Notes under the pieces: model-generated
Databases searched by the model: none
What the model was told of the DNA's origin: nothing
What the model saw: only the letters and a program-made list of their open reading frames with translations
Shown here: positions 4,842 to 58,100 of the stretch, piece after piece
Layout of the letters: each line of letters begins with the position of its first letter
Numbering within the stretch: the first letter of the stretch is position 1
Origin: a virus
DNA: 64,000 bases
Reading direction: 5' to 3' (one strand)
IMG/VR virus record: IMGVR_UViG_3300018954_000017
Coordinates: 2,216-66,215 of that record
Position numbers and translations under genes: made by a program

Positions 4842-5684
4842 CTAAAAATTTAATTTTGTGTTTTTCATTTCATTTGCAACAGCCGACAAAAGCTCTACGT
4901 TAGCTTCATTTGCTTGCACCCAATCTGCTATGTCGAACCCTTCTTGAATATCACTCCAAATGCGCCGAGGATCGACTACAACTAGCTTAAACTTGTCTTT
5001 AGGTAACACTGGCAGGCTACAGACTTCCCAAAGTTTTTGCGCCTTCTTGAAACCTGGTATATCTAAGTCACTCCAGTAAACCATTCCGCGCACTCCTGCT
5101 GACTTTAGCTGCACAATAGTTGCCATAAGGTCTACCGGAGTCCACGAGGAACCTTGCCAAGTTATAGCAACAAGTCCAAGCAATCGCGCATACTCAACGC
5201 ACTTCTCTCCCTCAACACCAAGTATCCACTTCCCAGACGCTTGGTGTATTTCGTTAGCTCGATACGGTAGCCACAATTGCTTGCCTTTGCCACGAGTACC
5301 GTTGCAATAGGGTATTGTAAATTTGTTGTCACCTTCGTAGTAGCGGTGGACTCGACATGAGTTACTGTAGTCATACCAAGTCTCGTTAGCTAAGTCAGCT
5401 TGAACGGGTGACGAGAATGTTGCCAGATCAATTTCTTCGTCTATGAATGCAGGCTGAAACTTCTTGATTATTGTCGGTTTATATCGTCTGATTGCCGCCC
5501 CGGTGTCCCCCAGAGCCTCTCGAATATCAACACTAGGGCATTCAGTCGTCCAGCAACTATAGGCTCCTGTGGCTTTACTGATGGTCAATCGCTTGCCACT
5601 ACAGACGGGGCACTCGCAAGCGTATTCAGTTGGAAGGTCTGAAATAATTGTCAGTTGATCGAGATGATTGAGTATTGACCACAT
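4842..5684 (-). CDS. Primase-like protein (Zn finger + TOPRIM), no helicase domain
   Basis: CECPVC...CWTTEC zinc finger; VEGEKC, WSDLDIPG and GFDIADW TOPRIM motifs. Confidence 0.8.
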   Translation of the reverse strand: MWSILNHLDQLTIISDLPTEYACECPVCSGKRLTISKATGAYSCWTTECPSVDIREALGDTGAAIRRYKPTIIKKFQPAFIDEEIDLATFSSPVQADLANETWYDYSNSCRVHRYYEGDNKFTIPYCNGTRGKGKQLWLPYRANEIHQASGKWILGVEGEKCVEYARLLGLVAITWQGSSWTPVDLMATIVQLKSAGVRGMVYWSDLDIPGFKKAQKLWEVCSLPVLPKDKFKLVVVDPRRIWSDIQEGFDIADWVQANEANVELLSAVANEMKNTKLNF

Positions 5685-36517: not shown

Positions 36518-37021
36518 TCAAAATTTTACTCTCTCTTCAATTTCAGTCCAGTTGTCTTCTTTCAATTTAGTCAAGTCGGAGTTTAAGCCTTTGAGTTGAC
36601 TGAAGCTTTCATAGCCGCCCTCTGGTTGTCTCGATAGAATCTTCTGTGCGTAGCCATCGCCAATCCCAGGCATCTCTAGCAACTGAGGTTTGCTGAGGAT
36701 GGGCAGACGCTCTTCGGGTGAAACGGGGTCGGGCAACACGTCGATCTTTGGTGTGTCGAATACGGGCAGAGGTTCGCCATTGCGACGGGAGTCTACCACT
36801 TGGAAGCCTTCGAGTTCAGAGGTTTTTGCGGGTTCACGGAGGAGAAGTTCAATGGTTTCGTTTTCGTATAGAAACTGAAAGATTGGATGTTTGTGGAGAG
36901 CCTCAACATCTTCGTCAGGAATGTTGAGGTTAATTCCGGGCATAACGAACAGCGTTTTCTGTTGTTTGCCGAGCATGTAGTTGAAAGTGTAGCCGGAGCC
37001 GTTGTTGCGAATGGATGCCAT
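36518..37021 (-). CDS. Post-capsid protein with a C-terminal helix-hairpin-helix motif
   Basis: LLEMPGIGDGYAQKILSRQPEGGYESFSQL (ComEA-like HhH); N-terminus resembles genes that follow DUF2184 capsids. Confidence 0.7.
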   Translation of the reverse strand: MASIRNNGSGYTFNYMLGKQQKTLFVMPGINLNIPDEDVEALHKHPIFQFLYENETIELLLREPAKTSELEGFQVVDSRRNGEPLPVFDTPKIDVLPDPVSPEERLPILSKPQLLEMPGIGDGYAQKILSRQPEGGYESFSQLKGLNSDLTKLKEDNWTEIEERVKF

Positions 37022-37132
37022 AGTTTGCTTTTGTTGACTGGGGTTTATAGAAGAAAGTATAATGTAGGACGAGGGGTTAGTGCTTACGATTCACCCCTCG
37101 ACTTGAACAGATCACTTATGGAGATAAGCAAT

Positions 37133-38080
37133 ATGTCTATTCTAGACTATAATTTTGGAATTGAGTTCAATCCGGAAACACATATCTTAGGTGACCTGTG
37201 TTCTTTGCGACACAGGTATCAAGGTTTAGATTTCAGTTTGCGTTTGAAAAAGACAAACCAATGTTGTTTCTGTAAGCGTGAGTATAGACAGAAGAAAGAC
37301 GAAACAGTGCATCCTGAGCGCGTTGCTCGTAAAAAAGAGTTTCATCAAAAAAAAGATAAGCCAGTTTCGGCAGAACGTTTTCCATTTAATCCTCAAAGTC
37401 ATCAGTTAGGTAACCTTTGCAAAGAACGTCACAATTATGACAGTACAGGGAAGACACTTCGCAAGAAAACAAAAAATGGACTAGGTGGCAATTGTATAGC
37501 GTGTGAACGAGAGCAATATCAGGCTAAAGCTGATTTGCGTATTGCAGAACAGCATAAAACGCAACCGTATGTCAAGCACTGCAAATGTGACAGTTGTCAG
37601 GTTGAGTTGAAGCGAAGAGCAGATCAAAGGTTGATTGCTCAAAAAATTACGACTAAAGCTTGGTTAGAAAGAAACCCAGATTATCACAAAGACTGGCAGA
37701 AAACAGGAAAAGGATTGGAATATCGAAGAGAAAAAGATAAATTGAGACACGCCAGGAAAAGAAAACCAGGTGGTTCTCGCTATTCTCCTGTAGAATGGCA
37801 AGAAAGAAAAGCATTGTTTGACAACAAATGTGTCTATTGTGGTAGTAGTAGTCACATCACTTTAGAGCACGTTATTCCGTTGTGTGATGACAGAGGATTT
37901 GATAGAATCACGAACATCGTTCCGGCTTGTTGGGAATGCAACTGTAAGTCTAAACGTGACAAAAGAATGGCTGACTGGTATCCGCAGCAACCATTCTTCA
38001 CGATACAGAGGTTTGAGAAATTGATGTCTGCTTTGGGAGAGGCAGAGATCGACGCTGTGCTTTCCGATCTAGACCTTTAA
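37133..38080 (+). mobile_element. Free-standing HNH (homing-type) endonuclease, antisense within the head operon
   Basis: CVYCG...TLEHVIP...NIVPACWECN core; two N-terminal LGxLC..RH.Y...CxxC modules; ATG 37133 with GGAG RBS. Confidence 0.85.
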
Positions 38081-38084
38081 AAGG

Positions 38085-39014
38085 TTACAAACCCTCATAC
38101 ATTCTTATTGACATGAACTTCAAAGGTACGATTCCGCCTGTACGTGCGCGACAGACCACTCGATTAGAGAATGTTACTTCCTGGGGTGGTCTCTGTTCAA
38201 AATCGAGCGGAATCTCGTAACGGATCTTGTTTACGTTCTTCTGATACGCGATCATCAGGTCACTACCACCAGTTCCAGCTCCGCTCAACATCTCGCAAGG
38301 CAAAATTTCCTTAATACCAGACGGGTTTGCTCGTTGGGTTTCAAGGATGAACTTCAGCAGAGTGTTATCGGTATTCGCTGGAAACACTAGTTCGCTAATG
38401 CGGTCGTATTGAGCCTGGGGTATCAGTAGAATCTCAGGTTTTTCAATACTCCGGGTAGCTTGGCGCATTCGGGTCAGGAAGCTAGTAATCTCAAGATACA
38501 GTTGATCAGCGGTTTTGTGAATCCATCGCGTACTATTGGTGCCACCGTTGCTATTGCCGTTATTGGGCGCAGTCTCGCGTGTCACGTTGGGAAGATTGAA
38601 TAATCCAAGTAGACCATTCTCAGCAGCACCCACATAACCCAAACGATCTAAACCTTCCTCAATGACCCGACGAGCAGTAATTGCCAGTTCAGCGGAGATA
38701 TTGACTCCAGCGTACTGAGCTGCTTCAAGGTCTTCGAGAGTAATTTCGTAACCGTCAACCAGTGTGCGAATGATGCCCATTTTTTTCTGGACATAGTTAT
38801 TGACCAACGGAACATCTTGAGCGCCATTAGAAAGGATTTTAGCCTCACCGACCGCTGTCATGAGCGTGTAGCTGAATGTCTCTGCTCGGTAGTCAACCTG
38901 ATTGGTAATCGGAACCAACATGCCATTGGACATCATGAGGTCTGGAAACTCCTCTTTAACGACCAAGTTCATGACATATTCTAATTGGTCACGAAAGAAA
39001 ATACTGTTAGGCAT
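38085..39014 (-). CDS. Major capsid protein (DUF2184 / encapsulin-like HK97 fold)
   Basis: FRDQLEY, GEAKI, G...GLLGLFNLPNV, C..RTGG.....P motifs; 309 aa; position after the decoration gene. Confidence 0.9.
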   Translation of the reverse strand: MPNSIFFRDQLEYVMNLVVKEEFPDLMMSNGMLVPITNQVDYRAETFSYTLMTAVGEAKILSNGAQDVPLVNNYVQKKMGIIRTLVDGYEITLEDLEAAQYAGVNISAELAITARRVIEEGLDRLGYVGAAENGLLGLFNLPNVTRETAPNNGNSNGGTNSTRWIHKTADQLYLEITSFLTRMRQATRSIEKPEILLIPQAQYDRISELVFPANTDNTLLKFILETQRANPSGIKEILPCEMLSGAGTGGSDLMIAYQKNVNKIRYEIPLDFEQRPPQEVTFSNRVVCRARTGGIVPLKFMSIRMYEGL

Positions 39015-39030
39015 TTGTTATATCAGTTCC

Positions 39031-39573
39031 TTATAGTTTCAAGTCGAGAATAGCCAGACCTGCTGCGTTGGTTTTCTCAAACCATTGTGCGTTAGCAAGT
39101 GGCAGCGTTTCACCAGCAACAGCAGCACTACGGAAGTTGCCCAATTGCAAAACACCTGTGCCAGGAGCAAAGCGAACGTGGACAGGCAGGTTGCGGTCTA
39201 CTGGGGTTTCGCTATAGACGTAAATTTTCCCGACTTTTCTCGTAGGAATTGAGTACTTGGCAGGATAGTTCGTGGAAAGGTTGTCGGTAGTTTCGTAGAA
39301 GTAACTGGGTTCCCCAGTCACCTGTGGTGTACGATAGCGCAGTACGGCTACACCCAAGATAACATCAGTAGCAGCAGTCGGCAGTTTGACAGTAGGACGA
39401 CCTGTAGTGTCGGCACCCCCAGCGTATGCGAGAGCCTGACCGTATTCGATAGGGACTGTGGAAATAGTTGTGATATCTTCAGTACCATGTTCTACACCAA
39501 ACAGCATCCCCTTAAGGGCTTTAGCGTGGTAGTAGTTGTAGTCTGAAGTTACGTATTGACTTGCACCAGCCAT
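39031..39573 (-). CDS. Capsid decoration/cement protein
   Basis: 180 aa between scaffold and MCP; IEYGQAL, GVAV, G.I.V motifs. Confidence 0.75.
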   Translation of the reverse strand: MAGASQYVTSDYNYYHAKALKGMLFGVEHGTEDITTISTVPIEYGQALAYAGGADTTGRPTVKLPTAATDVILGVAVLRYRTPQVTGEPSYFYETTDNLSTNYPAKYSIPTRKVGKIYVYSETPVDRNLPVHVRFAPGTGVLQLGNFRSAAVAGETLPLANAQWFEKTNAAGLAILDLKL

Positions 39574-39585
39574 TAATTGTCTCCT

Positions 39586-40389
39586 TTATTTGTTTGAGTA
39601 GGCGGAAGGCAGCTTGCGCTCTTTTCTCGCCTTCATGGTGGGCGAGTCTTCTTTGGGTGTGAAAGAACCCTTCTTGTCTCCAGCATCCAACGTCAAACCT
39701 CGATTCTGTTCGATAGCAGCAGCAAGCTGTTGTGAACCTTCGTCAGCTTTAGTGGGCGCGGGAGCATCGGCTACAGTTGGCTTGAGAGCAAGATACAGGT
39801 GTTCAACAAACATGTCGCGTTCGTCACCAGAGCTGTCAATGCGAGCCTTAGCTTCTGCGGGTAGCGTTGCAATGGTCTTGAGATACTGAGCCTTGTAGTC
39901 AAGGGGGCTTAGACCGAAATCTGGCTCAAATGCTGAGTCAACTTTCTTGAGGGCGGGAGTCACTTCAGATACAACAGACAGAAACTCTTTGCAGTAAGAC
40001 TTTACTTCATCTGAGTCCATCTTTGGCTTACCTTTGCCTTTCTTCGGTTTGCCATCTTCACCCATTTCTTCTTCAATATCTTCGTCCGGCTTCTTGCTGT
40101 GGGCGTTTTTCAGCTCGGCATCTTTTGCATCCAATTTAGTCTGTAGCGCGACAATGTCAGCATCAGCCTGAACTTTAGCGGCATTAGCAGTACTTAGGGA
40201 GGCTTGAGCTTCTGAGAGTTGAGAATCCAGGGTGGTACGTGCAGTTTCTGCGGCATCCAATCGGGTTTTGTAATCTGAGAGTTCAATGGCTAGAGAGTCG
40301 TATTTGCTCAACTGTGTTTCGATAGCACTTCCGAGTGCTGCATCGTCTAATTGAAATACGCTGTTGCCAAGTTTAATGGCTTGTGGCAT
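39586..40389 (-). CDS. Capsid scaffolding protein
   Basis: Coiled-coil, Ala/Lys/Asp-rich, repeated [RK]xD motifs; corresponds to the part often fused C-terminal to DUF2213. Confidence 0.7.
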   Translation of the reverse strand: MPQAIKLGNSVFQLDDAALGSAIETQLSKYDSLAIELSDYKTRLDAAETARTTLDSQLSEAQASLSTANAAKVQADADIVALQTKLDAKDAELKNAHSKKPDEDIEEEMGEDGKPKKGKGKPKMDSDEVKSYCKEFLSVVSEVTPALKKVDSAFEPDFGLSPLDYKAQYLKTIATLPAEAKARIDSSGDERDMFVEHLYLALKPTVADAPAPTKADEGSQQLAAAIEQNRGLTLDAGDKKGSFTPKEDSPTMKARKERKLPSAYSNK

Positions 40390-40419
40390 AGTTTATGCAA
40401 GCATGAGTGAATGAGTGAT

Positions 40420-40440
40420 TAAGTGTTGCGAAGCAACCTT
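40420..40440 (-). promoter_or_regulatory. 21-bp motif shared with the terS upstream region (candidate late regulatory site)
   Basis: AAGGTTGCTTCGCAACACTTA is identical at 14388-14408 (+); a 19-nt match occurs at 13486. Confidence 0.55.
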
Positions 40441-40544
40441 TCGTATGGGTTCTTCGATTTAAAGCTCGAAGATACGGTACATTTATGAGTGGACTATTCT
40501 AGGCTACGGAATTCTACAGCAAACTAATGTGGTATTTGTACGCA

Positions 40545-40748
40545 TTAGTCTACAATTGCTGCTGAGTAGTTTGATTTCAAGCGTTCAGTTACGGACTTCA
40601 AAAACTCTACGTTATTCAAATCTGGCTCATTCCACTGAAGACTAGCCAATAGTTGTCCAATTTCTTCTGCTCCCTCTAGCTGCACATGATCGTCAATAGC
40701 TTCTGCTGTTCCTATTGATCCGCCGTCTTTATAAATCTCAATCTTCAT
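40545..40748 (-). CDS. Small acidic protein coupled to the kinase gene (candidate immunity/partner)
   Basis: 67 aa, ATGA overlap with the kinase stop. Confidence 0.6.
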   Translation of the reverse strand: MKIEIYKDGGSIGTAEAIDDHVQLEGAEEIGQLLASLQWNEPDLNNVEFLKSVTERLKSNYSAAIVD

Positions 40749-41689
40749 AGTCTGAATAATTCTCCATAAGTAGTTTTACCGGGAACATAGGTTTTCTCGA
40801 TGTGGTTAAGTCTGCGACGTACAATGGGATCGTTACCGGATGCTTCAATAATTTTGTCTTTATTGTCGAGCATGTTTTTGACTGGTTTTTCTGATATGAT
40901 CCGCTCTTTAGTTTCTTTACGAGCAAACAACATGTCGTCTATATGAAAGCCAATATCTAAATCATCATTACGACGTAAGAAATTATTTTTACGTTGTCGG
41001 TCTTTGATTTTTTTGGGGTCGCCAAGAGCTATGTAGAATGTGTTGACGGGATTGTATTTAAGCGGGTCAGAACTTTTTTGTCCTGTTGTGAAGTACCGAT
41101 TTCCAAAGCTCAACTCATTATCAATTAATTTCACTTGTCCGCTTTGGGTTACGAATGTATTCCCCATGTGTCGATCGCTTTGATCTATCACATAGTCATA
41201 TAACAACGCTTTTTCGGCTGTCTCTTTGTCATAGAACAATTTGCGTTCTTTCTGCTCCCTACTGACTTCTTTTCCTAAATATGGTGACACAGCGTATGTT
41301 TCCCCATTAATTTTGTATTGTTTGATGGGAACAACGTTATCACCAAGACCCATTGCTTCGCCAATTTTGTACGCCTTCTCTTCTGCTCGAAATTCCGAAG
41401 CCTTCATCCCCCCTTTGACAAAGTATTTTTTGCCATCAATTTCAATGGTACCAATGTTGGCTCCATTTTTGCTCTTTAGACCAAGATTAGTGATTTGAGC
41501 ATTAGAAACTTTAGTCTCATCAGGTAAACTATTGTTAACTTTAGAGTCACTAGTTGCTTTACTACTACCTCCTCCCCCAGAACTCCAGCGACCTGTACGA
41601 TCGCGAGGCTGACGAGGGTTGTAATCTAAATGAAGATCAGGGTGGTTTAATAAAAATGAGGCACAATTGAGAAGATTAAAACCGTCCAC
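40745..41689 (-). CDS. PI3/4-kinase-like (HipA/CtkA-type) kinase with an N-terminal NPxQPR motif
   Basis: KKYFVK, E..AY.I, DYVIDQSDRHMGN, VKLIDNELSF; GTG 41689 directly after the protease stop preferred over the tracked 41731. Confidence 0.85.
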   Translation of the reverse strand: MDGFNLLNCASFLLNHPDLHLDYNPRQPRDRTGRWSSGGGGSSKATSDSKVNNSLPDETKVSNAQITNLGLKSKNGANIGTIEIDGKKYFVKGGMKASEFRAEEKAYKIGEAMGLGDNVVPIKQYKINGETYAVSPYLGKEVSREQKERKLFYDKETAEKALLYDYVIDQSDRHMGNTFVTQSGQVKLIDNELSFGNRYFTTGQKSSDPLKYNPVNTFYIALGDPKKIKDRQRKNNFLRRNDDLDIGFHIDDMLFARKETKERIISEKPVKNMLDNKDKIIEASGNDPIVRRRLNHIEKTYVPGKTTYGELFRL

Positions 41690-41690
41690 A

Positions 41691-42353
41691 TTAGACCCCC
41701 AAAAGAATACTGGCAGCTTGTATGAAATCAAACAGCGGTTTGGGTGGGACTAAAGCTAGATCTTGTACTTCAATAGTTGATTGCTGTTCCGCAAACTCTT
41801 CGTCACTATCGAATCTAACTCTTGCATTCCGACCCGCTCGTGCAAAGTCAACAATTGCCAAGTGATTGTACCTAATGTTACGCTGTCGCTTATCGTAAGT
41901 GAGCTGCTCACCTTCATCATTAGTCCAGGTGCCCGACTCATCTGTTACGTCGCAATCGTAGCCACAGGATAACTCTCGCATACCTTTAGCTATTACAGCG
42001 TCGATACCGTCCTTCTTTTGAAGGTTGAGTTTGACACGAATGTACGGGTTGACCAATGCATCAATATCATCCCCTACAACTCCAACTCCGTATTGATTAA
42101 AATTGCCAGGAGTCACCCGCACTGGAGGGTGTTTGACAGTAAGCGGAACTCCAGCCAGTGTGTGGAGTGAGTCTTCGTTCAGCACATCTTCTGGGTGCCG
42201 AAGTTCACGAATGATTTTACCAGAGGTGCGATCGCGATACTCGAAGACGCCGACTCTAGTAGCAATACCATCGAGCCGAAGGTGACCTTGGTGAGCTTTA
42301 AAGGGCTTATGTAGCGATTGAATAATTGTGCCGTTGTCAAATCTAAATGTCAT
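41691..42353 (-). CDS. DUF2213 capsid maturation protease
   Basis: GIATRVGVFEY, P.T..HPP, RELSCGY, QRNIRYNHLAIV..ARAG..AR...D. Confidence 0.9.
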   Translation of the reverse strand: MTFRFDNGTIIQSLHKPFKAHQGHLRLDGIATRVGVFEYRDRTSGKIIRELRHPEDVLNEDSLHTLAGVPLTVKHPPVRVTPGNFNQYGVGVVGDDIDALVNPYIRVKLNLQKKDGIDAVIAKGMRELSCGYDCDVTDESGTWTNDEGEQLTYDKRQRNIRYNHLAIVDFARAGRNARVRFDSDEEFAEQQSTIEVQDLALVPPKPLFDFIQAASILLGV

Positions 42354-42356
42354 TGA

Positions 42357-42548
42357 TTATACAGTGCCTAATAGTAAACGAGATGCAAATGCTAGAGTTG
42401 GTTGAGGGAAACTTAAAGTACGTCGTTCGATTTCATCTTCTGAAAGATCTGAAGCGTATAAATCAAGAATCTTATTTACATCGTCAAAACTGATATTCTT
42501 TTCAGCACACATTTTTTTTACGATTTCTGTACTTGTCAGTTTGCTCAT
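42357..42548 (-). CDS. Small protein, paralogue of 48524..48718
   Basis: DV..ILDLY.S..EDEI..R....P.P..A...L.L shared with 48524. Confidence 0.65.
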   Translation of the reverse strand: MSKLTSTEIVKKMCAEKNISFDDVNKILDLYASDLSEDEIERRTLSFPQPTLAFASRLLLGTV

Positions 42549-43372
42549 GTTTTCTTTTGTTTTCTATAGTTTTCTGCGGTTTGCCTGTACTCACTTGCAG
42601 CTTCTTCGGCTTCTTCTTCGGTGATACGTAAATCGAATTCTTCTTCTCTAACCCTTTTCATGTCAGGTTCAAGCTTTCCGTTTTTCACGACTGCATATTG
42701 ATACCCCCCAGCCTCCCCACCAGAAGGTCTGCTGAATTTTGCTATTCTTTCGTAAGCGTATGCTCTGACTGCACCATATTCATCGCTGTCATCGGTATAT
42801 GCAGAGGTTTGATACTGTTCTCCATCTTCTCTACGGGAAGCATCATATTGAAGTATCTTGGCAATTTTGATGGAGATACGATTACTTTCTTCTGAACTGA
42901 TCTTGTCATCTTTGTCAAAACTGTCGTTAATGCTAAAATCAACAACTTTAGATTTGCCGTCACCTACGGGTAATATACTGACATCTAGTTTGTTGTTCTC
43001 TTTTGTAGTGTGACTGTATGCAAAACCACCACGACCCAGATCTGTTTCTTCAACATCTTTTAATTTGGGCTTAGATTCCTCTAGTTTGACTTTGTTTGCT
43101 TCCTCTTCAAGTTTTCGGGCGTGTGCTCGACCAATTGCACTATTAGGATCAAATAGCTGCTCAGATCCATTGCGGTTCTCGGCACCACTTTCAACCCACC
43201 TGCCGTCCCCACCTCGACTTTGGTTTGGATTGTACCCAGATCTCCGAGCACTTGATGAAGAGGGCGATGCACTAGATCCACCACTCTCTCCAGACGATCT
43301 ACTTCGTGTGGTGTCAGTTTTAAATTGATCAAATAGTATTGATGCGCTAGTCAATAAATCATTCATGTACAT
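42545..43372 (-). CDS. Head-module protein with an NPxQSR motif and an uncharacterised C-terminal domain
   Basis: Ser/Gly linker, YNPNQSRGGDGRW, then a globular domain (VDFSIN...RAYAYER). Confidence 0.75.
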   Translation of the reverse strand: MYMNDLLTSASILFDQFKTDTTRSRSSGESGGSSASPSSSSARRSGYNPNQSRGGDGRWVESGAENRNGSEQLFDPNSAIGRAHARKLEEEANKVKLEESKPKLKDVEETDLGRGGFAYSHTTKENNKLDVSILPVGDGKSKVVDFSINDSFDKDDKISSEESNRISIKIAKILQYDASRREDGEQYQTSAYTDDSDEYGAVRAYAYERIAKFSRPSGGEAGGYQYAVVKNGKLEPDMKRVREEEFDLRITEEEAEEAASEYRQTAENYRKQKKT

Positions 43373-43411
43373 ATCTGACTGTTAATGCTAAACTAGCAAC
43401 AGAAAGTACTT

Positions 43412-43717
43412 TTGATTTACGTAAAACACCATAGTTTACTAGAGTTACATATGTTCGTAGATATAATTGACAATGTGATAACAACAACATTGGGTGAGCA
43501 AGTCGAGGAAGTGTCTATGGGATTGCTGTTAAATGTGAACGGGCAGGAGCAAGGCATTCCTGTTCGGGAACTAACTGACATTTACCTAGACAACGAAGAT
43601 ATAAGTCAAGCGACTAAGTTGTATGTTACTTACCAAGATCAGGAATACGAATTCAAAGTACCTGAACAGGATACGGCTGACTGGCAGTATTTAGAACATT
43701 TAATCGAATTAGAATAG
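43412..43717 (+). CDS. Small acidic protein convergent with and abutting the portal gene
   Basis: Strongly D/E-rich; stop at 43717 abuts the portal stop at 43718; start may be ATG 43451. Confidence 0.7.
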   Translation: MIYVKHHSLLELHMFVDIIDNVITTTLGEQVEEVSMGLLLNVNGQEQGIPVRELTDIYLDNEDISQATKLYVTYQDQEYEFKVPEQDTADWQYLEHLIELE

Positions 43718-46700
43718 TTATTCTAGAGTTTTCCTTAAGTCCTTCAGATAATCTGAATACTTTGTAGCTTTCCCATGTGCTTGTTCCCAGAGTTCTTTAG
43801 CTTTCTCTGGACTCAAATTACCGTCACGTATACGTCTATTGATTTCATTTGCAGCAACAAAACTATAGCGGCGATAGTATTCTCTCCAAAAGGTTGGTCT
43901 AAAAGTTTGATTAAACCAATCACGTCCACCATCGCCATCTTTAGGAATACCAAAACGTTTCATGTCACCTGTGTCAGGATGAATACCTTTCGGATGGTTT
44001 GCTCCATATAACGGAGAAGGTGCGGCATGAACTCCTTCTGCTAAAATAACTAATCGTCTGTCGGCTTTATTCTCTAGACTGATTGCGTAACCATTAATTT
44101 TGTTCGCGGGATCTGGTTGCAATAGATTCCTCATGCCATCTTTAGCCTGCTGTAGTGTCATTGCTCCAGACTTTAACCCATCATTAATCTCATCAAATCT
44201 GGCTTTGCTCCATTGGTGAACATGATGGATCTGCATTTTGCCATAGTCTCCGGGTCTATTGCCGGATCTGACTAAATCTTTATCTACTTTTCCGTGGAAT
44301 GTCGGTTTCCAGTCGGGCACGGTTGGTTGATTGCTTTTGTCTTCAACTAAACTCATTGTTGTAACAAGTCCACCAAACACTTGTTCATTTGTCATTTCTC
44401 GAAGTTTAGGGTAGTAGCTAGGAACTCCATCAACTCGTTCTCCCAGAATCTCTATACCATTCTTATGTTGATTTAGAGTCAGCTCTTTCCCTTCATGCTC
44501 AATTCTGTATTCAAAGTTTTTATTAGTCTTAAATTTAAAACTTGCTTCAAACTTTTTGTCTTCTGAATTTTGCCAAATTTCTACTTTACCGTCAACGCTG
44601 ATTTCAAAGCTGTCACTCTTGACAACCTTTCGCAACGTTGGTAATCGTTTGCGTTTAATAGCGTTTTCAACTGTAGCTTCGGCTTTCTTTTGTATCTTTT
44701 GGTTTACAGCCGGATCTATGACAGGATCAATAGGTTTGGGTGGTTCCGGTGGTAACTGCAATTCTGGTTTCGGAGGTTCCACAACAGGTTTCCCTGGTTG
44801 GCGTTTGCTCCCTTTAGCAAGCTTATATTTATAGATTTTTTCGAGTTTAGCTTGAGCAGTCTTTTCAGGATAAGGATCTGAGTTTGTTTGGTCTAGCTCC
44901 TGTTGTGCCCTTTTGCGACTGATCCCAACATCGCGCCAACGTCCAAACCTGTCTCGTGGTTGAAGTGGATTAAATTTACTTTTGCTTTTAGCAGTAGGTG
45001 TAGAAGCGACCGTACTTGAGCTGGACTCTGGTGCGGTTTCTAGTTTTTTTTTACCAATGCGGTCTTGACGAAATTCTACCTCATCCCGACGATATCGGTA
45101 ATGTCGCAACTCTTCCGGGGTTAAGTCATTCACCAACCCCATGAACTCTGGGGGCATATGTTGCAAATACAGATCAATTGCAGCTTTTGCATCGTCGCAA
45201 CCCAAGATTATTTTTGTTTCATCTAGCATCTTGCGTTCAAGCGGGTCATCGGCATTCGCTTTAAGTTGGTAGATTTCAAATATCTTTCCAACTGGCTTTT
45301 CCCCATTGCATAGAGCTTGATGGAATTCTGGGGTGGCATAGAAATCTAGAGGCTCATTATCATGACCTGTATGCTTCTGAATATAGCCATAGACCCCCTG
45401 CATTCTTCGGTTATGACGGACATCTCCTGGCAAGTATTCAATAGCTAGCGTTCGATCGCCCCAACGTAACTTCTGCTTGGCAGCAGCATCTCTGCGTTCA
45501 TAAGAGTCAGTCCTTCGATTCTCCGCCATTCGATCGCGATCACTTTCTTGAGCCAACATTTCGGCATTGTTGCCGCCATCGCCGCCTGTGTCTGCTATAG
45601 CTGCTTGCCCCATTTTGGTTCCGACATCAACGCCTGTTTGAGCTGCACCAGACTTCGCACCCATGTTCTCGCCAGTTGGAGCGGCTGTCGGTTTGCCTGC
45701 AAGTACGGGCAATAAGAATTCTGGGTCATCTTTCTTACTCCACAGAGTTTTATCAATTGCGGGATCAAGTACAGTTTCCATTGAGTAATCTGGGGAACCA
45801 AAGCGGTTCTTGCGTATCTCAAGGGGATGAAGTACTCCAATCATTCGATAGACTTGATCTGTGCGAGCTTGAGTTTGCCTGAGTTTTGCTTCAGTTTCAA
45901 GGTCAAGCCTTAGTGACGAACGAGTGCTTAAGCGCCAACCTTCCGGGATTTTACCTTTAGTTATCCCTTTCTTACTAATTAGACACAGCCGAGCAAGAAC
46001 TTTAGTTGGTTTAAGCCAATTATGGCGCTGAAAGCTTTCCAGGGCGTCAGCGTAGTCATATTTCTCTGATTGACCACTAGTGTTACCTTGGCTGCCTTCG
46101 CCCCAAAGTTTTGTATGGGGAATACCAGACTCTGCTGTCAGTAGCGCCTTTAGTCGGTCAACAATGTCCCCTACGCCCCCATAATTACGTTGAACAAATC
46201 CGGCGTCTTCAGTTTCCGCATCCATAGCCAAACCTTTGTTGTAGCTCATGCCCATTTGGATAGCCAAGAAGCGACGAATAATTTGATCGGATTGTCCTTT
46301 GAGAATTAAGTCAGCAAGACCTTTGAGTTTGTAGGTGAATACGCTGTAGTCTTGAATCATCCCAGAGCTAGCCATGACACCCTGCATATAGCTGCCAAAA
46401 GCTACCAAAATAGATTGAAGTACGCTAAGGTCTTCCCCGTGGTTCTCATGTAGCATCCAGCCATATAGCTTGCGTCCCGAAAATTTGAGAACGCGAGACT
46501 TGTGAATTCGCATTTGGTTCAAGGGAATCTTTTGTTCATCCTTGAGCCGTTTGTTAAGCTCCCACAAGCCAATAAGGTCGTAGTATTCCGGTTCCACTAA
46601 AGAGTAACCACCCAGCTCTGTGCCCCATACGGATGGTCGCAACTCATACGAAGAAAGAACTTTTAGCTCTACGATCTCTTCCAGATTCTCTTCGTCTAAT

Positions 46701-47086
46701 GGCTCATCTGCTTTACGTCCATCATTAGCGAAGATGACAATGTATGCGTTCCGATGCAAGCGAGCGAGCACTGAAGCTTCCACCAGTTTTTCGTGGAGAC
46801 TCAATTTGTCTTCCAAATAGTTGGTAATTTCTTGAGGGGCTGTGGTATCTTTGCCGAGATTGAGAGAGTACCATTCAACCGGAGAATCTTCGGGTAGTAG
46901 CGCTACTATTTTTTGAACAAGCCCGGAAGTCTTGAAGAGGGCGGAACACTCTTCCCTGCTAATGTTGGCAGCTTGTAAGTTGACTTCAAAGTTCAGGCTT
47001 TTATCTCGAAGAGTCCCCGCGCCTGTACTCATGTTGTACAAGCCAGCATATGCGTCCAGTAGCGCCCCGTCTTCTCTATAACTCAT
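43718..47086 (-). CDS. Portal protein (DUF1073-like) fused to an InPase domain and an LHH-like HNH/EndoVII nuclease domain
   Basis: aa ~1-450 portal (IHKSRVLKF, QDYSVFTYKLKGL, GIPHTKLWG, GQSE..DY); aa ~536-662 InPase (IEY.PG..R...M...YGYI...G.D..PLD, DE.KIILG); aa 705-717 FNPLQPRDRFGRW; C-terminal QIHHVHQ...LAEGVH...NH...R.WF...R..FW. Confidence 0.85.
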   Translation of the reverse strand: MSYREDGALLDAYAGLYNMSTGAGTLRDKSLNFEVNLQAANISREECSALFKTSGLVQKIVALLPEDSPVEWYSLNLGKDTTAPQEITNYLEDKLSLHEKLVEASVLARLHRNAYIVIFANDGRKADEPLDEENLEEIVELKVLSSYELRPSVWGTELGGYSLVEPEYYDLIGLWELNKRLKDEQKIPLNQMRIHKSRVLKFSGRKLYGWMLHENHGEDLSVLQSILVAFGSYMQGVMASSGMIQDYSVFTYKLKGLADLILKGQSDQIIRRFLAIQMGMSYNKGLAMDAETEDAGFVQRNYGGVGDIVDRLKALLTAESGIPHTKLWGEGSQGNTSGQSEKYDYADALESFQRHNWLKPTKVLARLCLISKKGITKGKIPEGWRLSTRSSLRLDLETEAKLRQTQARTDQVYRMIGVLHPLEIRKNRFGSPDYSMETVLDPAIDKTLWSKKDDPEFLLPVLAGKPTAAPTGENMGAKSGAAQTGVDVGTKMGQAAIADTGGDGGNNAEMLAQESDRDRMAENRRTDSYERRDAAAKQKLRWGDRTLAIEYLPGDVRHNRRMQGVYGYIQKHTGHDNEPLDFYATPEFHQALCNGEKPVGKIFEIYQLKANADDPLERKMLDETKIILGCDDAKAAIDLYLQHMPPEFMGLVNDLTPEELRHYRYRRDEVEFRQDRIGKKKLETAPESSSSTVASTPTAKSKSKFNPLQPRDRFGRWRDVGISRKRAQQELDQTNSDPYPEKTAQAKLEKIYKYKLAKGSKRQPGKPVVEPPKPELQLPPEPPKPIDPVIDPAVNQKIQKKAEATVENAIKRKRLPTLRKVVKSDSFEISVDGKVEIWQNSEDKKFEASFKFKTNKNFEYRIEHEGKELTLNQHKNGIEILGERVDGVPSYYPKLREMTNEQVFGGLVTTMSLVEDKSNQPTVPDWKPTFHGKVDKDLVRSGNRPGDYGKMQIHHVHQWSKARFDEINDGLKSGAMTLQQAKDGMRNLLQPDPANKINGYAISLENKADRRLVILAEGVHAAPSPLYGANHPKGIHPDTGDMKRFGIPKDGDGGRDWFNQTFRPTFWREYYRRYSFVAANEINRRIRDGNLSPEKAKELWEQAHGKATKYSDYLKDLRKTLE

Positions 47087-47104
47087 ACTGCTTTAGCGGT
47101 TGTT

Positions 47105-47590
47105 TCATATGACAAATGCTGACATAGCTAATGCTCCACCGCCGCCTTTGCAGCCACAGAGTTCGTTAAGCGCTTCAATTGCTGTGAATCCTGGAGGGAC
47201 AATGAGCGGGGTGCTAAGGTCGAGGCCAAGTTGAAGATTTAGATATGTTTCGATTGGTTTTGCTTGTCCCGTAAACGTGATCCCTTGTTCAGCTTTTGAT
47301 AGTGCCTGAATTTCTAGATTTGTTTGTAACCGTCTAGCTGCCACGTAGTAAGTTCTGTAGGTTATTCCAGCAGCGAAAGCCGCTAACTCATCCTCAGAAT
47401 ACAACGGATTTGCCACCGAACTCATCAGACTTGTTGCTTCAAAAGCCGCCTTGGCTGTCAAGTTAATGCCAGCAGAAACTTGCAACAGATCGCTAATGAA
47501 CTCTACATCTGTTTCTTCGGGTGCATCTGCTAGTACTTGGACTTTGGCTATAGCTTGAGCTAGTGTGAGCGGTTGTGGCATTGGCAACAC
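47105..47590 (-). CDS. Putative head-tail adaptor / head completion protein
   Basis: L.VSAG...YRTYYVAA..LQ...GITFTG pattern; first gene of the head module; start may be ATG 47581. Confidence 0.55.
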   Translation of the reverse strand: MLPMPQPLTLAQAIAKVQVLADAPEETDVEFISDLLQVSAGINLTAKAAFEATSLMSSVANPLYSEDELAAFAAGITYRTYYVAARRLQTNLEIQALSKAEQGITFTGQAKPIETYLNLQLGLDLSTPLIVPPGFTAIEALNELCGCKGGGGALAMSAFVI

Positions 47591-48523: not shown

Positions 48524-48718
48524 ATGAGTCATAACAGTCAATTGTCTTTGAAAGAGTTATCTGAATTGAAGGGGGCAAAGTATCAAGATGTGTTGGACTT
48601 GCTGGAGTTGTACGATTCCATGTCACCAGAGGAAGAGATACTCAACCGAATTGCTACTTACCCCATGCCAGCTAGAGCGCTTGTTGCCGAACTCATATTA
48701 CCTCAAGTTAGCGAGTAA
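48524..48718 (+). CDS. Small protein, paralogue of 42357..42548
   Basis: AGGAG RBS and TGnTACAAT promoter (48493-48501); sequence similarity to 42357. Confidence 0.65.
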   Translation: MSHNSQLSLKELSELKGAKYQDVLDLLELYDSMSPEEEILNRIATYPMPARALVAELILPQVSE

Positions 48719-52190: not shown

Positions 52191-55100
52191 ATGGCTTTAG
52201 GTGGATCTGCATTAGGTACTTTAACTTTATATATCAAGGCAGATACTTCTAGCCTTGATCAAAGTTTGTCGTCTCTTGAAAGGAGAATAGCTGGATTTGC
52301 TGGTCGCGCCAGTAAACTGGGTGCAACTGGATTACAGTTGCACCCAACTGTAGACGACAGCGAACTAACAAGCCTTAACGAACACCTTAGCATAAAGCAA
52401 AAACACTTTAGTCAAGTTGGAAGTTATTTTGCTGCCAATCCTCTAACACCAAAAGTAAATCTCAAGGATTTACAAAAATTATCTGTTGAATACGACAATA
52501 TTGAGGCGAAAGCTAAAAAAAATCAAACTCGCGTTAATATGTCTGCTTCTATGGGCAATGCCAACAATGCCGTACAGCAGATTAGGACACCAGGTAGAGC
52601 TGCTAATGTTATTAACGTTGAAATAAAGAATGCAAGTATTGTTAGTTTGTCTAACTCAATTGCATTAGCAATACGGAAAAGTAACAAAGAGACGGCAAAA
52701 GAAATAGCCAAAGCGCAACGTCCCAATGCCCTTCAACGTGTTATAGGTTTTGGTGGAGATATTCTTAAATCCACTGTACAAGGTGTGGCTTCTGGTGTGT
52801 CTTCTCGTGCAGCAAAAGGTATTCTTGGGGGTGTCGAGAAAAAAGCTGGCATTAGTATTGCTGATGCAGCAGAAAACGCCACATTTAAACTGCTAACCAC
52901 AGTAGAAGATGTTTATAATTTTATATTTAAACGAAGAGTCTATAATCAACGCAAAGCCGATGAGATTGTAGCAAAATTAAAGACAGAAGAGACAGAAGCC
53001 GAAGCTGCCAAAGCTCCTCAAAAAGCAGCAAAAGGAACTGCTGTAACTTCAGAAGACGCAACAAAGCGTAAAGAAGTTAGAAAGAGACGAATACATAGCA
53101 AAAGAGCAAACGATGCCACTCAACTTTTTGAAGAAATAGACTTAAACGAAGACATAGCAAAATCAGAAGAAGGCATAAGTGAAGCAAAAGAATACCTTCA
53201 GCGTATTATTGCGTTAAAAAAACGGTTTTCTTCTGACCTGGATCAAGTCCCTAAAGATCTAAGTGAGCAGGCAGAAAAATATTTAAAGGCTATAGAAGAA
53301 TACGAAAATTATTTGTCTGAAATTGCTGGAATTAAAAAAAAGCAACAACCATCAAATATTAAGCAGACAAATAATAAAGAAGTTCTAAACAAACTTCGTA
53401 ATCGTCAAAAACAACCTGTTTCAAATCAACCCAAACCCGCTCAAAGTCAAAGAGAACAAAAGAGAGCGTCACAACAGCAAAATTACTTCAATAATCGTAT
53501 CGATGATGCTGATAAATTTTTTAATCAGATAGATCAAGTATTATCGGTATCAAAAAAAGAACCTATAGCAAAAACTGCGACTATAGGTTTGTTGACTCAA
53601 GTAAAATTACTGAAGAAGCGATTTGAAGATAGTTTAAACAATATCCCCGAAGAGTTTCAAGAGAAAACAAAAGAATACCTAAGCTTGCTAATAGAAACAG
53701 AGGCAGAGCTTAAGAACACATTAAACACTCAAAATTCCCAAAATGTTATCAGTAAATTAAATCAGCCACAAAATATTGAGAACAAAGCATCTCAATCTCA
53801 ACAGCCACTACGAAGCTTTAAGATTGATCAAGAGTCTGGTATATTAGATCAATCACAACAACCTCGTACCGGATCTGACAATTTACAGGAAAACTATAAG
53901 CGCATAGTTGCCGCGTCAGCCAAGGTTAGTGGACTCAAGTTAGACACATCTAGAATCCCCAATCTGAAAGTAGATAACAAGGCGTTAACTAAAATTACAG
54001 TTGACTACAAGAAACTACTTGCAGTTAACCCTACCGAAAAGCTTTTAGAAGCTATCGAAAAAGAAGATGCAGTAACACTTAAAGAACTTATTTCTCGAAA
54101 TAAAGAGTATGGAGAAGCAGTTAAAATTACAACGGGTAGAGCTTCTTATACTCCCCGAAGTAATACGATTACAATAACTTCTGCCCTAGAAGAACTTTTT
54201 TCACTTAGCTCTGAACAATTAGAGAAATTTGCTGAAAAATATCCTGAGTCTATTCAAAAATACACTGAAGATTTGATTCATGAAATAAAGCACTCATTCC
54301 AGTTTGATTTTGGAAAAATATCTTATGGGGATTTGGCAACAGGTAAGATTAAATCTCCTACCATGACTAAGTTTGAAAACACAAATAAGTATGCACAAAA
54401 ATATGGAGAAGCCTCTGCTGCTGCTCCTTATTACAAGCAAGTAGCAAAACAAATGCCTCCGGGGTACTTAAAAGTAATTCGTGACACAGAAGCTGATGCC
54501 GCAAATTTTGAGTCAAGGTGGTCTGACGTACTCAATAGTTTTTTTAAGGCTGCAAATACCTCTTTAAACAAAATAGAAGAAGTAAGTAACGATGTAGGTG
54601 ACGCTGCGAAATCGACAGGTGAAGAGGGGTTGCAGTCTTTCAGATTAGATGTACCTTTATCAAGTGGTAGGACAACAACCGGAGATGATGATGTTGACAG
54701 ATTGTTAAACGAAATCCATTCCCTCAGAGAGGGCATCAACTCCCCCAGTCCAAGTGGTGGTGCAGGAGGAGGGTCGTCTCAATCGATGGATGATTTTATT
54801 AACGAAATTAATGAATTGCGTGAAAGTATCCGCAGTCTTCCTGATCTAGATGTAGATATTGATACTTCTAATCTTACTCTTTTGGAGCGCATCCTGTTAA
54901 ACATAAGAGAAGATATGGAGTATGTCAACAATGGAGGCACGTTAAAGGGGCAATATATTAGAGGATCGGCGCGGGATTTGGGAATTAAAATGACTGCTGG
55001 TCAAGCAGAAAAAATTGCAAAAGATGGAGGAGACTCTAACAAATTAATTGACGACATAGACCGAGGTCTTAACATTACAGGAGATGCATTAAAGGGGAAC

Positions 55101-58100
55101 TGGGGAAATGTATTTGTCAGTTTGATAGACGAAATAGATGCTTTCACAGATACTGCCCTCGACAAATTTGCCGATTTTGTAGAAAAGATTCCGGGTGGAG
55201 AAGCTTTTGCTAAACTTATTCGAGGATCTAAGCAGCTCAAAAGTGTGGCAGTCAGCATCTTTGGACTCCAAATGGCTTTTGATGCTCTTTCACAAACTAA
55301 ACAATGGCTAGATAGTTTTGATGAAGTTTTTGTAGACGCAGCCGTTGAATGGGAAAAATTTGAAAAGATAATTGGTTTCTCTAGCAAAACGTTCAATCAA
55401 GCGCAAACCAATATTAAATTTGTAAGAGACGAAGCAGTTAGGTTGCGTACAGACTTAAAGCAATCTATGCAAGGCTTCAGTCAGCTTTCGGCAGCATCTA
55501 TCGATACAGGCATGGAAGGAGAAGGGACTAAGCAGTTATTCTCCGCAGTAAACCAAGCTAGCTCAACTTACGGGTTAGACGCCGAAGGTCAGAGTCGAGT
55601 CTACTCAGCTTTAGGTCAGGTAATCTCAAAAAATACTGTATCAAGCGAAGAACTAAAGCAACAACTTGGAGAAATTTTACCAGGATCTTTCCAAATTGCG
55701 GCACGAGCGGCTGGGAAAACAACACAAGAATTTCAGTCTTTATTAGAGACTGGGCAGATTCTAGCCGAAGATTTCCTACCCAAATTTGCCCAACAATTGT
55801 CAGCAGAAACCGCTGTGGGTGTAGCGGGTGCTGCCCAAAGTGCTCAAGGTGCCACTAGCAGATTATCTACAGCAATGACTGAGTTGCAAGTCTCAATCGG
55901 AAGATTTGGGATGGATGAACGCAACATGTTTCTCAATGTTTATGCTTCTGGGCTAGAACTTTTGCAAAAAAACGCAACTCTCGTTAGCTACACGTTAACA
56001 TCAATTTTGACGGGTGCGGTTATTACTTTCCTTGAAGCCTTAAAGAAGATGTCAGGGAGACTGATGTCAGCGGCGGCTGGATTTTTAGCTACAAGACTGG
56101 GGATAACTTCATTGGCAGTTGCTCTAAAAAAACTTGGAGAAACAGGAGCTAATGCTTTCAAAAGTTTCTTGATTTGGACGGCAATAGGCGATATCTTTCA
56201 AATGTTAAAATCTGGGTTTTCCGACTCATCAGGAAAATCAAGAGATTTTGCAAACACTACAACAAATTCATTTAAAGAAGTTCAGAAATCTGTAGCTGAA
56301 GCTAGAGGAGAATTAGATAAATATTATGCATCTCAGGGCAAAAAAAACCCAGATGCCCCGAACCAAAAGAAACGTGGACAAGACAGCATCATTGACGAAG
56401 CTCCTATATTGAGTTGGGTTCTACCTAAAGAAATTGAGAAAGACGACAATATCTTCAACCAATTCAGATTTAAAGCACGACAAACTGTTGCTAGTGCAAT
56501 GGATGGTTTAGGAACTTTGACAAATCCAGGTGCTGCGTTTGAATCTGTCCGAAAAGGCGATCGCACGTTAATGCCTACTTATGCTAACAAAAAGTTCCAA
56601 GATCAAAAGAGAAGTACAACAGAAATATTAGGGAACAGCGCTAACACAATTAAAGCTACGGATTCAGCTTTAAATGACAATGAACTTAAAAAGGTAAAAG
56701 AGTACGACGAAAAATTACGTCAAATTCAAATTAAACGTCGAGGATTAGTCCAAATTAATCCTGGTGACAAACAAGGACTGTCCGTTTTAAAACGTGAAGA
56801 AGAGTTAGTACTCAAAGATCGCCAAAAGGCATACAAACCACTAGCAGCTACGCAAGCTTCTAACCAGCAAGTGATTCAAGCTTTAGAGTCAGAAGTTGAA
56901 GTATATAAAGAAAAAATAGCTCAAGCAGAATCTGATTTTGGAAATGCAACAAAAAACAAAGATAAATTAGATATACAAGCTCGATTAGATTACTACAAAA
57001 ATACTTTGCCACAGTTGGAAGGCGCATTAAAGAAAACACAAGATGCACAAGACGCCTTTTCTAAATCTATTGGAGAGTCTGTTGACAAATTCGCATTACT
57101 ACAGAAACAACTGCAAAATGTTGCCGATAGATTTGCAGATGTAAGCGATCGCATTCAAATGATTGGTAACAGTGCTAAGACGGACTTGTCACAAGCTGTC
57201 ATCAATGGAGAGATGACACCAGGACAAGCAGAAGCTGGCAAACAAGCAATTGACAGAGACATTTTAGAAGAACAGTTAAAACGAAAGAAAGGGTCTATCA
57301 ACGAGTATAAAGGTTTACTTTTTGGTGCAGATGCTCAGGCAATTCTCGAGTCGCGAGGAATCAAAGATATTCAAGATGTCGGGCAAGCTCAACTTGGTAC
57401 TTTGGCGAGCAAGGCTAAAGACGGCACTCCTGAAAAAGAAGTGTTCACTCGGCTTCAGGATATGAAGAAAATGGAACTTGAAGCATCAGATCTTCAAGTT
57501 CAACTTTCCGCAGTGCAAGAACAAGCCGCACAGCAAATACGCGAGTCCAACAAACAAATTGCCGATTACTTCCGCGACGTTTCCCGCCAAGCAGCAGAAT
57601 TAGGTTTGAGTACAAAAGAAGCTCAAGCTCAGATTGCAATGCAACAGCAAAAAAACAAGCTTAAGTCAGCACTACAAGGTTTTCAAGACAACTTCTTTAG
57701 TTCGTTTGTTGATTCGCTCATTGAGGGGATGGATTCTCTCAACGAGCCAATAATGGCAAGCATTGAACGGGAACGAGAAGTCACTGCTGCCAACAACTCA
57801 AAACAAGACAGAGATCGTCAAACAGCTGACATATACAAATCACTTCCACTGCAAACTGAAGGAATTAAACTTGATTTTTCGGCTATTGACTCAGCTCCGG
57901 TCAAACAACTCGAAGACAGCTTAAAGAAATCAGCAGAAGCCAGCAAAAACGTCACTACAGCATCTAAAGCAACGGGAGTAGCGATTAGAGATTCTTCAAA
58001 AGAAGCAAGCGGCTTAGGTGACAAGGTTGAAGATGTTGCTAGTGGGATCAATAATATTGAGACTGCGACTGGAAGTGTGACAACAGCATTACAAGATAAT

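Follow-up and report, generated by a model that had tools for sequence, protein, structure and literature searches.

Why do three otherwise unrelated proteins of one phage head module carry the same 13-residue peptide? The question is raised by a 64,000-nucleotide stretch of viral DNA (the window; positions 2,216 to 66,215 of IMG/VR record IMGVR_UViG_3300018954_000017), where a first-pass annotation had noted the motif [YF]NPxQ[PS]RxxxGRW in the portal protein, in a 275-residue protein and in a protein with a kinase-like core. Enzymes that act at the very start of infection are carried in phage heads, and how this cargo is selected and released is little understood outside T4 and a few other models; a peptide common to hundreds of unrelated cargo modules would offer a direct way into both questions. 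We favor a two-part reading of the locus, in which a lineage-specific element brings each protein into the head and the motif serves as a universal header on the phage-head cargo, and we would give this reading as a whole about an even chance of being right.

Three copies of one peptide in a head module

We searched the entire IMG/VR record, which contains the window and is 104,255 bp long (estimated 87% complete). A degenerate DNA pattern for the motif matched at three places, all on the minus strand (41604-41623, 43215-43234 and 44955-44974), where 0.08 matches were expected and none of 100 shuffles reached three. A six-frame protein regular expression returned the identical three sites and nothing in 30 shuffles, so the three copies reported by the first-pass annotation stand. 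A relaxed form of the pattern gave no copy anywhere in the 104,255-bp record beyond these three in the head module. As peptides, the copies read FNPLQPRDRFGRW in the portal (44936-44974; residues 705-717), YNPNQSRGGDGRW in the 275-residue protein (43196-43234; residues 47-59) and YNPRQPRDRTGRW in the kinase-like protein (41585-41623; residues 23-35, counted from the GTG at 41689), each on the minus strand. Most synonymous positions differ among them, which places the conservation, and hence the selection, at the level of the peptide; for the same reason we rejected the idea that the motif is a recombination sequence acting as DNA. The portal of a related contig, L163, has FNPNQTRGKNGRW at the position equivalent to the first copy, and in an alignment of the 275-residue family the motif's Q, R, G, G and W do not vary.

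The three proteins are built differently around the motif. The portal polyprotein (1122 residues; 43718-47086, minus strand), recognized by its translation and its Pfam and PHROG matches, consists of Phage_portal_3 (nucleotides 45854-46948, residues 47-411), InPase (nucleotides 45101-45481, residues 536-662), a Ser/Thr/Lys-rich linker, the motif, a basic Pro-rich linker and a 283-residue C-terminal domain, referred to below as the portal tip (43721-44569, residues 840-1122), for which there are a cluster family and an AlphaFold2 (AF2) model. The 275-residue protein (42545-43372, minus strand), for which there are eight homologues and an AF2 model, has a leader helix (nucleotides 43328-43360), a Ser/Gly spacer, the motif, a helix and a domain with a predicted GNAT fold (residues 102-236, nucleotides 42665-43069). 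For the kinase-like protein (314 residues; 40745-41689, minus strand) the most likely start is GTG 41689, one base past the stop codon of the preceding protease gene; the protein runs from a leader helix, DGFNLLNCASFLLN (nucleotides 41645-41686), through the motif and a Gly/Ser run into a PI3/4K/HipA-like core.

The first-pass annotation had also placed the motif in a flexible linker. In the AF2 model of the 275-residue protein (predicted local distance difference test, pLDDT, 71) the leader is disordered except for a helix at residues 5-15, and the stretches that flank the motif (residues 1-46 and 63-71) score below 50, so flexible surroundings are borne out; the motif itself, however, is modelled as a small beta-hairpin (pLDDT ~62). 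The absence of a MuF carrier domain was confirmed, as PF04233 had no match anywhere in the 104-kb record. What cannot be maintained is that these modules lack a carrier. The portal is one, the protease encoded ahead of the kinase-like gene would be another but for its stop codon, and those cargo proteins that stand alone bring a leader helix at their N-terminus. That protease is a DUF2213 (Pa193_gp24) prohead protease-like protein of 220 residues (41691-42353, minus strand; Pfam 3e-33, phrog_530 1e-49), its match to phrog_530 spanning only the N-terminal half of the 390-position profile.

The motif in other phages

A strict DNA pattern for [FY]NPxQPRDxxGRW was searched in IMG/VR and in GTDB genomes, and was found in at least 82 stretches of the former, where about 0.02 chance matches were estimated, and at least 78 of the latter. 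Among the matches listed, the domains upstream of the motif were Phage_Mu_F (13+6), the portal families Phage_portal, Portal_3, Portal_Mu and P23-45, and Peptidase_S78, while those downstream were Zeta toxin, ART, PBECR nucleases, a CdiA-type RNase and an EC869-like toxin, together with NUDIX, Acb1, 2H phosphoesterase, SAM lyase and PI3/4K. In the same set, genes downstream of motif-bearing open reading frames (ORFs) included prohead proteases of the DUF2213 (six), Mu-like_Pro (four), S78 (four) and S78_2 (two) families, and no conjugation markers were seen. The 147 distinct occurrences among these matches are unconserved upstream of the motif except for a preference for Lys/Glu-Ala, and continue downstream into a Gly-rich run; 101-350 residues, or about one module, follow the motif in 89 of 129 occurrences. 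The motif may come immediately behind the start codon (M-x-FNP) or separate two domains, and some polyproteins contain several copies, with one copy per module in L055, L070 and L144. The earlier suggestion that it marks a module boundary in head proteins therefore turns out to be general across phage head-associated effector proteins, and the motif is independent of both the carrier protein and the family of head protease. Since hundreds of toxin-like modules in unrelated phages are headed by this peptide, it is probably a label of proteins carried within the capsid.

Related forms of the header extend this distribution. The fused counterpart of the window's protease/kinase arrangement is found in L038 (3810-4907, minus strand), whose DUF2213 protease is joined to a header variant, YNSNQPKDSKGRF, and then to long poly-Gly runs and a further module. 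Within the portal-tip family, 34 of 55 representatives carry R[DG]xxG[RKQ][FWY] in their first ~33 residues (MAFNDLHPRGSGGRF and FNPDKHPRGYRGRF are examples), from which the motif generalizes to [FWY][ND]xx[KQ][HP]PR[GD]xxGR[FW]; where the context is visible, the genes for these homologues follow a portal-like gene. Self-cleavage at Asn-Pro was considered and is unlikely, in that the general form often lacks Asn-Pro. No published description of the motif was found in the full-text literature, a search whose coverage leaves out subscription journals.

A position at module boundaries, once per module, is also what would be expected if the motif were simply a recognition site at which the prohead protease separates modules, with no further role. 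In the window's lineage the motif does sit between leader and cargo, and such a site would match the processing of internal proteins by T4 gp21. We nevertheless regard this explanation as quite improbable on three grounds: (i) 13 conserved residues far exceed what known prohead protease sites need; (ii) the identical motif accompanies DUF2213, Mu gpI-like, S78 and XkdF-type proteases; and (iii) in free-standing proteins the motif lies at the extreme N-terminus, where cleavage would free nothing.

Split and fused forms of a proposed cargo gene

The locus was compared with contigs L163-L169, which were reached through eight homologues of the 275-residue protein and comprise five distinct related head modules. 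They are syntenic for portal-InPase, the 275-residue family, a gene of 64-68 residues, the DUF2213 protease, scaffold, cement and major capsid protein, and the L163 portal is 69% identical to the window portal over its full length, C-terminal domain included. The portal of L166 and of L168 terminates at residue 670-671, exactly where the linker of the window portal starts, and the C-terminal module is a separate, overlapping gene of 447 residues whose product begins with MDDFLLDAWxLxQQFxLD, a spacer and GYDPxQERGxxGRW. In the window, L163 and L165 this module is part of the portal polypeptide, which lacks the helix and retains the motif. That one cargo gene occurs both split and fused is a natural experiment at the portal/module boundary, and would separate the loading element from the universal header: incorporation would be provided by the helix or by the fusion, and the motif would have a separate role that both forms need.

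The other two cargo proteins follow the same bipartite plan. The leader of the 275-residue family reads MxDFLxSAxILFDQFKxD ... GYNPNQxRGxDGRW and that of the kinase-like protein DGFNLLNCASFLLN ... YNPRQPRDRTGRW; a helix-plus-motif leader is common to three unrelated proteins, namely the 275-residue family, the 447-residue family and the kinase-like protein. The helix pattern, DFLxxAxxL, also fits the conserved hydrophobic C-terminal tail of the protease, LFDF[IM]xAAxxLL, which in the window is LFDFIQAASILLGV (nucleotides 41694-41735, minus strand) and is kept in four relatives. Three true matches to the pattern occur in the window, against 0.5 expected.

Our working model is that a set of cargo proteins becomes part of the procapsid and is probably delivered together with the DNA. 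The three modules here would be a candidate His-Me nuclease-like domain, a protein of predicted GNAT fold and a PI3/4K/HipA-like kinase. The first part of the model is a lineage-specific incorporation element, either fusion to a head-interior protein (the portal-InPase in this phage, MuF or a prohead protease in others) or a short N-terminal amphipathic helix; the DFLxxAxxL helix would dock on the same procapsid site as the tail of the DUF2213 protease. The second part is the universal header, [FYW][ND]Pxx(Q/K)xPR[DG]xxGR[WF], usually with a Gly-rich run after it, which stays with the cargo on different carriers. During head maturation the polypeptide would be cut just upstream of the header, leaving mature cargo that begins with it, and the header would then act after incorporation as an element of recognition, hand-over or exit.

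There is precedent for several pieces of this model. In T4, a capsid-targeting sequence on IPI-III and Alt is removed by the gp21 prohead protease, and the proteins are injected. The leader in the window is likewise short, N-terminal and carried by otherwise unrelated proteins. It differs from the T4 leader in having no sequence similarity to it, in being bipartite (a lineage helix plus a universal 13-mer) and in that its cleavage is our proposal; moreover, the universal 13-mer is present within fusions too, and in phages whose head proteases are unrelated. The tail of the HK97 protease and the cargo-loading peptides of encapsulins are further terminal targeting elements. Docking of the protease tail is plausible because the C-terminal region of Pa193 gp24, a Pbunavirus DUF2213 protein, binds the capsid interior (PMC11456595). 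Both are short terminal helices of a DUF2213 protein, in the window's case apparently reused at the N-terminus of cargo, although the window helix is much shorter than the helix-turn-helix of Pa193.

A simpler scheme would make the motif itself the capsid-targeting, or loading, signal, bound by a conserved site in the procapsid much like the T4 capsid-targeting sequence or a cargo-loading peptide of encapsulins, with the helix accessory or unrelated. Many free-standing proteins have the motif as their very beginning and no leader besides it, and the motif was found only in head-gene contexts; both points favor a loading signal. We nonetheless consider it unlikely. The motif is kept in portal, MuF and protease fusions, which need no such signal, and recurs once per module in polyproteins; the same 13-mer accompanies portals of at least four families, proteases of at least four families and capsids of different families, with no obvious conserved receptor among them; and the lineage of the window adds a helix that resembles the protease tail. 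The two-part reading fits all of the observed anatomy, whereas a pure loading signal and a pure protease site fit it poorly.

Several points weigh against our reading. Where a protein begins with the header itself, a separate incorporation element is missing, and the header might after all be the loading signal and the helix redundant. The likeness between helix and tail spans ~10 residues in few sequences, and the enzyme activities of the cargo modules are deduced from weak matches. One nuclease-like homologue, in L177 (6001-7697), sits in a cyanobacterial chromosome of 11.4 Mb where no head gene occurs within 6 kb. Finally, profile searches of the PDB with the strict and the general motif found nothing significant. 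As a separate observation from those searches, chain Af of PDB entry 9RKU, a 454-residue trimeric protein of the phage 7-7-1 baseplate core, has QPRDASGRF at residues 83-91; with a profile E of 0.87, this resemblance may be chance.

A bolder version of the two-part reading would make the header a universal address or exit label for the cargo of tailed phages, independent of the carrier and recognized by a partner common to all of these phages (the packaged DNA or a conserved ejection step), and would have header and lineage helix together suffice to load and deliver any protein. We hold this version to be doubtful. More generally, were the header confirmed as a mark of cargo, it would let cargo and anti-defence or toxin genes of uncultured phages be predicted from sequence, and could also serve as a capsid-loading tag.

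Were DNA the partner, the header could act as a nucleic-acid anchor, an Arg/Gly/aromatic hairpin that ties the cargo to the packaged genome so that the cargo leaves with it. DNA is the single partner shared by all these phages, AF2 models the motif as a beta-hairpin, and PRGxxGRF resembles the GXGGRF loop of NF-YA/HapB, whose role in DNA recognition by NF-YA has been described (PMC12101057). The likeness is short, however, and statistically insignificant (the PDB profile match to PRGPGGRF of HapB has an E of 0.78); the strict motif has Asp where NF-YA has Gly; and cargo enters procapsids ahead of the DNA. An anchoring role of this kind thus seems very improbable to us.

Proposed cargo domains and small neighbouring genes

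The portal tip belongs to a family with 58 cluster representatives in 1.84 billion proteins, most of them free-standing and 350-570 residues long. Its AF2 model is of high confidence (pLDDT 96.3), yet no convincing fold match was found in the PDB (Foldseek and a wide VIA-align search) or among the AFDB clusters, and the window portal's C-terminal domain had no Pfam match. Relatives gave weak, sub-threshold matches to Pfam LHH in seven of 46 members (best E 5e-4) and to GH-E in two of the 46. In the family alignment His954, His955, Arg1010, His1020 and His1031 are invariant, and a conserved IHH closes a strand. The tip is therefore a candidate His-Me (LHH-like) nuclease inside an otherwise unmatched fold. 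The Foldseek list was weakly enriched in kinases (TM score ~0.1), an assignment that was rejected because neither Asp nor Lys is invariant in the family. The L177 homologue has an N-terminal KHPRDTHGRF header and a 66-residue acidic ORF downstream, and adjoins an ISL3 transposase.

For residues 102-236 of the 275-residue protein, all of the top 50 VIA-align matches were GNAT-fold or closely related chains, AcrVA5 and Mu Mom among them (Z 6.5-7.5, root-mean-square deviation ~3-4.4 Å, 92-134 residues aligned), and Foldseek matched GNAT structures with a probability of up to 0.90 (E 0.016). There was no Pfam GNAT match. With Z below 8 and a model pLDDT of 71, support for a GNAT fold is moderate. 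In L166 a 108-residue ORF (5185-5511) upstream of the 243-residue GNAT-like gene repeats, by eye, the C-terminal half of the family, and may be a partial tandem duplication.

The kinase-like protein matched PI3_PI4_kinase with E 4.6e-4 (20.6 bits, the cut-off being 27.1) and HipA_2 with E 0.04, both below cut-off, and its Atlas neighbours are PI3_PI4/HipA_2 clusters. Its translation contains DRHMGN and IDNELSF, which we take to be the catalytic loop DRHxxN and the metal-binding, DFG-like Asp of the PI3/4K/HipA family. Overall the sequence points weakly to a PI3/4K/HipA-like kinase. No homologue other than the ORF itself was found in 5.8 billion clusters, and phmmer gave no match for any of the three cargo domains among 158 motif-bearing proteins. 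The domain labels of the first-pass annotation fare unevenly: a kinase-like signal is present but sub-threshold, the domain called unknown now has a predicted GNAT fold, and the LHH label depends on sub-threshold matches in seven of 46 relatives. Its statement that the three modules are mutually unrelated is upheld.

It had further been proposed that these modules are interchangeable. At the distance of L163-L169, however, the portal C-terminal domain, the GNAT-like protein and the gene of 63-68 residues are kept in all five related head modules, leaving two of the three modules with invariant C-terminal domains in homologous phages. The kinase cassette alone varies. Between protease and scaffold, the kinase-like gene and the 67-residue gene after it are absent from L163-L169, a comparison that marks them as a two-gene cassette inserted in the window phage only. 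Polymorphism is real across distant phages but is not seen among close relatives, and the earlier reading of a polymorphic effector-immunity system is supported in part. To our reading, the split and fused cargo, the bipartite leader, the domain identities and the variability among relatives are newly described here.

A small gene does accompany each carrier, as had been claimed. The gene of 67 residues (40545-40748, minus strand; acidic, isoelectric point 4.3) overlaps the stop codon of the kinase-like gene, and that of 63 residues (42357-42548, minus strand) overlaps the stop of the 275-residue gene and is translationally coupled to it. The third, an antisense acidic gene with an isoelectric point of ~4 (43451-43717, plus strand), abuts the portal stop and differs from the earlier account in length, being more likely 88 residues long with a start at ATG 43451, as in relatives. 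It is kept in L163 and L165.

Whether these neighbours are immunity genes bears on another explanation, that the locus is a polymorphic toxin-immunity array of the MuF-toxin type, with tips that are often swapped and small genes that encode the cognate immunity proteins. The modules after the motif are very diverse across phages, the kinase cassette occurs in the window phage only, and small, very acidic ORFs (isoelectric point ~4) adjoin the nuclease-like gene in eight of ten contexts, antisense in the window, L163 and L165 and downstream in L170, L171, L175, L176 and L177. Against this stand the invariance of the portal tip, the GNAT-like protein and the 63-residue gene in all close relatives, and the nuclease-like gene of L168, which has no adjacent small ORF. 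The two sets of acidic ORFs have no demonstrable homology either (profile-profile probability 0.4% between the antisense 88-residue family and the ORFs downstream of distant homologues). The 63-residue gene follows the 275-family gene in L163, L165, L166 and L168, and has a paralogue at 48524-48718 (plus strand), among neck or tail genes and away from any cargo gene. Its product ends in FASRLLLGTV, and both 63-64-residue paralogues have such a hydrophobic tail resembling the C-terminus of the DUF2213 protease. With its conservation, its paralogue elsewhere and its protease-like tail, the 63-residue gene fits better as a head component or further cargo than as cognate immunity. The idea of cognate immunity neighbours is thus suggestive for the nuclease-like module alone, where the 88-residue gene is a candidate inhibitor or immunity protein; an array of toxin-immunity pairs as a whole strikes us as little short of implausible.

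Two described systems come closest to this arrangement. Head proteins with variable toxin-like C-termini, in many cases followed by a small gene, are the mark of MuF polymorphic toxins (Jamet et al. 2017, PMC5576092), and the header motif of the window is also present in many MuF proteins. The window differs in that its record has no MuF domain and its close relatives show little swapping of tips; a term search of PMC5576092 found no mention of a motif, linker or cleavage. Polyvalent proteins (Iyer et al. 2017, PMC5512222) include the portal-InPase fusion BcepF1.124, and GNAT and NUDIX domains linked to InPase; that paper reads portal-InPase fusions as packaged and predicts packaging and injection of polyvalent proteins. 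The window portal resembles their phage type as a head carrier with Portal_3, InPase and a C-terminal domain in a portal-terminase module. Unlike them, its cargo is partly encoded by separate, leader-tagged genes and its tip has no Pfam family above threshold. No description of the header motif or of a leader helix was found in a term search of that paper.

The remaining genes of the module are conventional. Its order is portal, protease, scaffold, cement and major capsid protein, the same as in relatives, and Pfam/PHROG matches together with this synteny place a scaffold-like coiled-coil protein at 39586-40389, the cement protein at 39031-39573 and the major capsid protein at 38085-39014, all on the minus strand. 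GC content is 0.38-0.42 over the kinase cassette, the 275-residue gene and the C-terminal part of the portal gene, against 0.45-0.51 in the core head genes (38000-47500), a contrast that we count in favor of the cargo reading. A frameshift that would fuse protease and kinase-like ORF was considered and is unsupported: the junction is TAA, one base and GTG, the sequence upstream is G-rich and no slippery run is visible by eye, which makes two separate genes the simpler reading. Neither a megablast of the region nor a tblastn of the kinase ORF gave a match in 50,697 phage records, and a search for related loci that used the protease found none. The nearest cultured portals, compared over the N-terminal domain, are those of Synechococcus phage S-CBS4 and Aphanizomenon phage CL131 (~31-32% identity), which is consistent with a cyanobacterial host for the window phage.

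Two further ORFs lie outside this set. One, of 397 residues and with an HNH domain (E 1.5e-5), adjoins the major capsid gene on the opposite strand (36887-38080, plus strand), and an HNH gene is also present in L163 at the corresponding position. The other, downstream of the neck and tail genes, is a single ORF of 3563 residues (52191-62882, plus strand).

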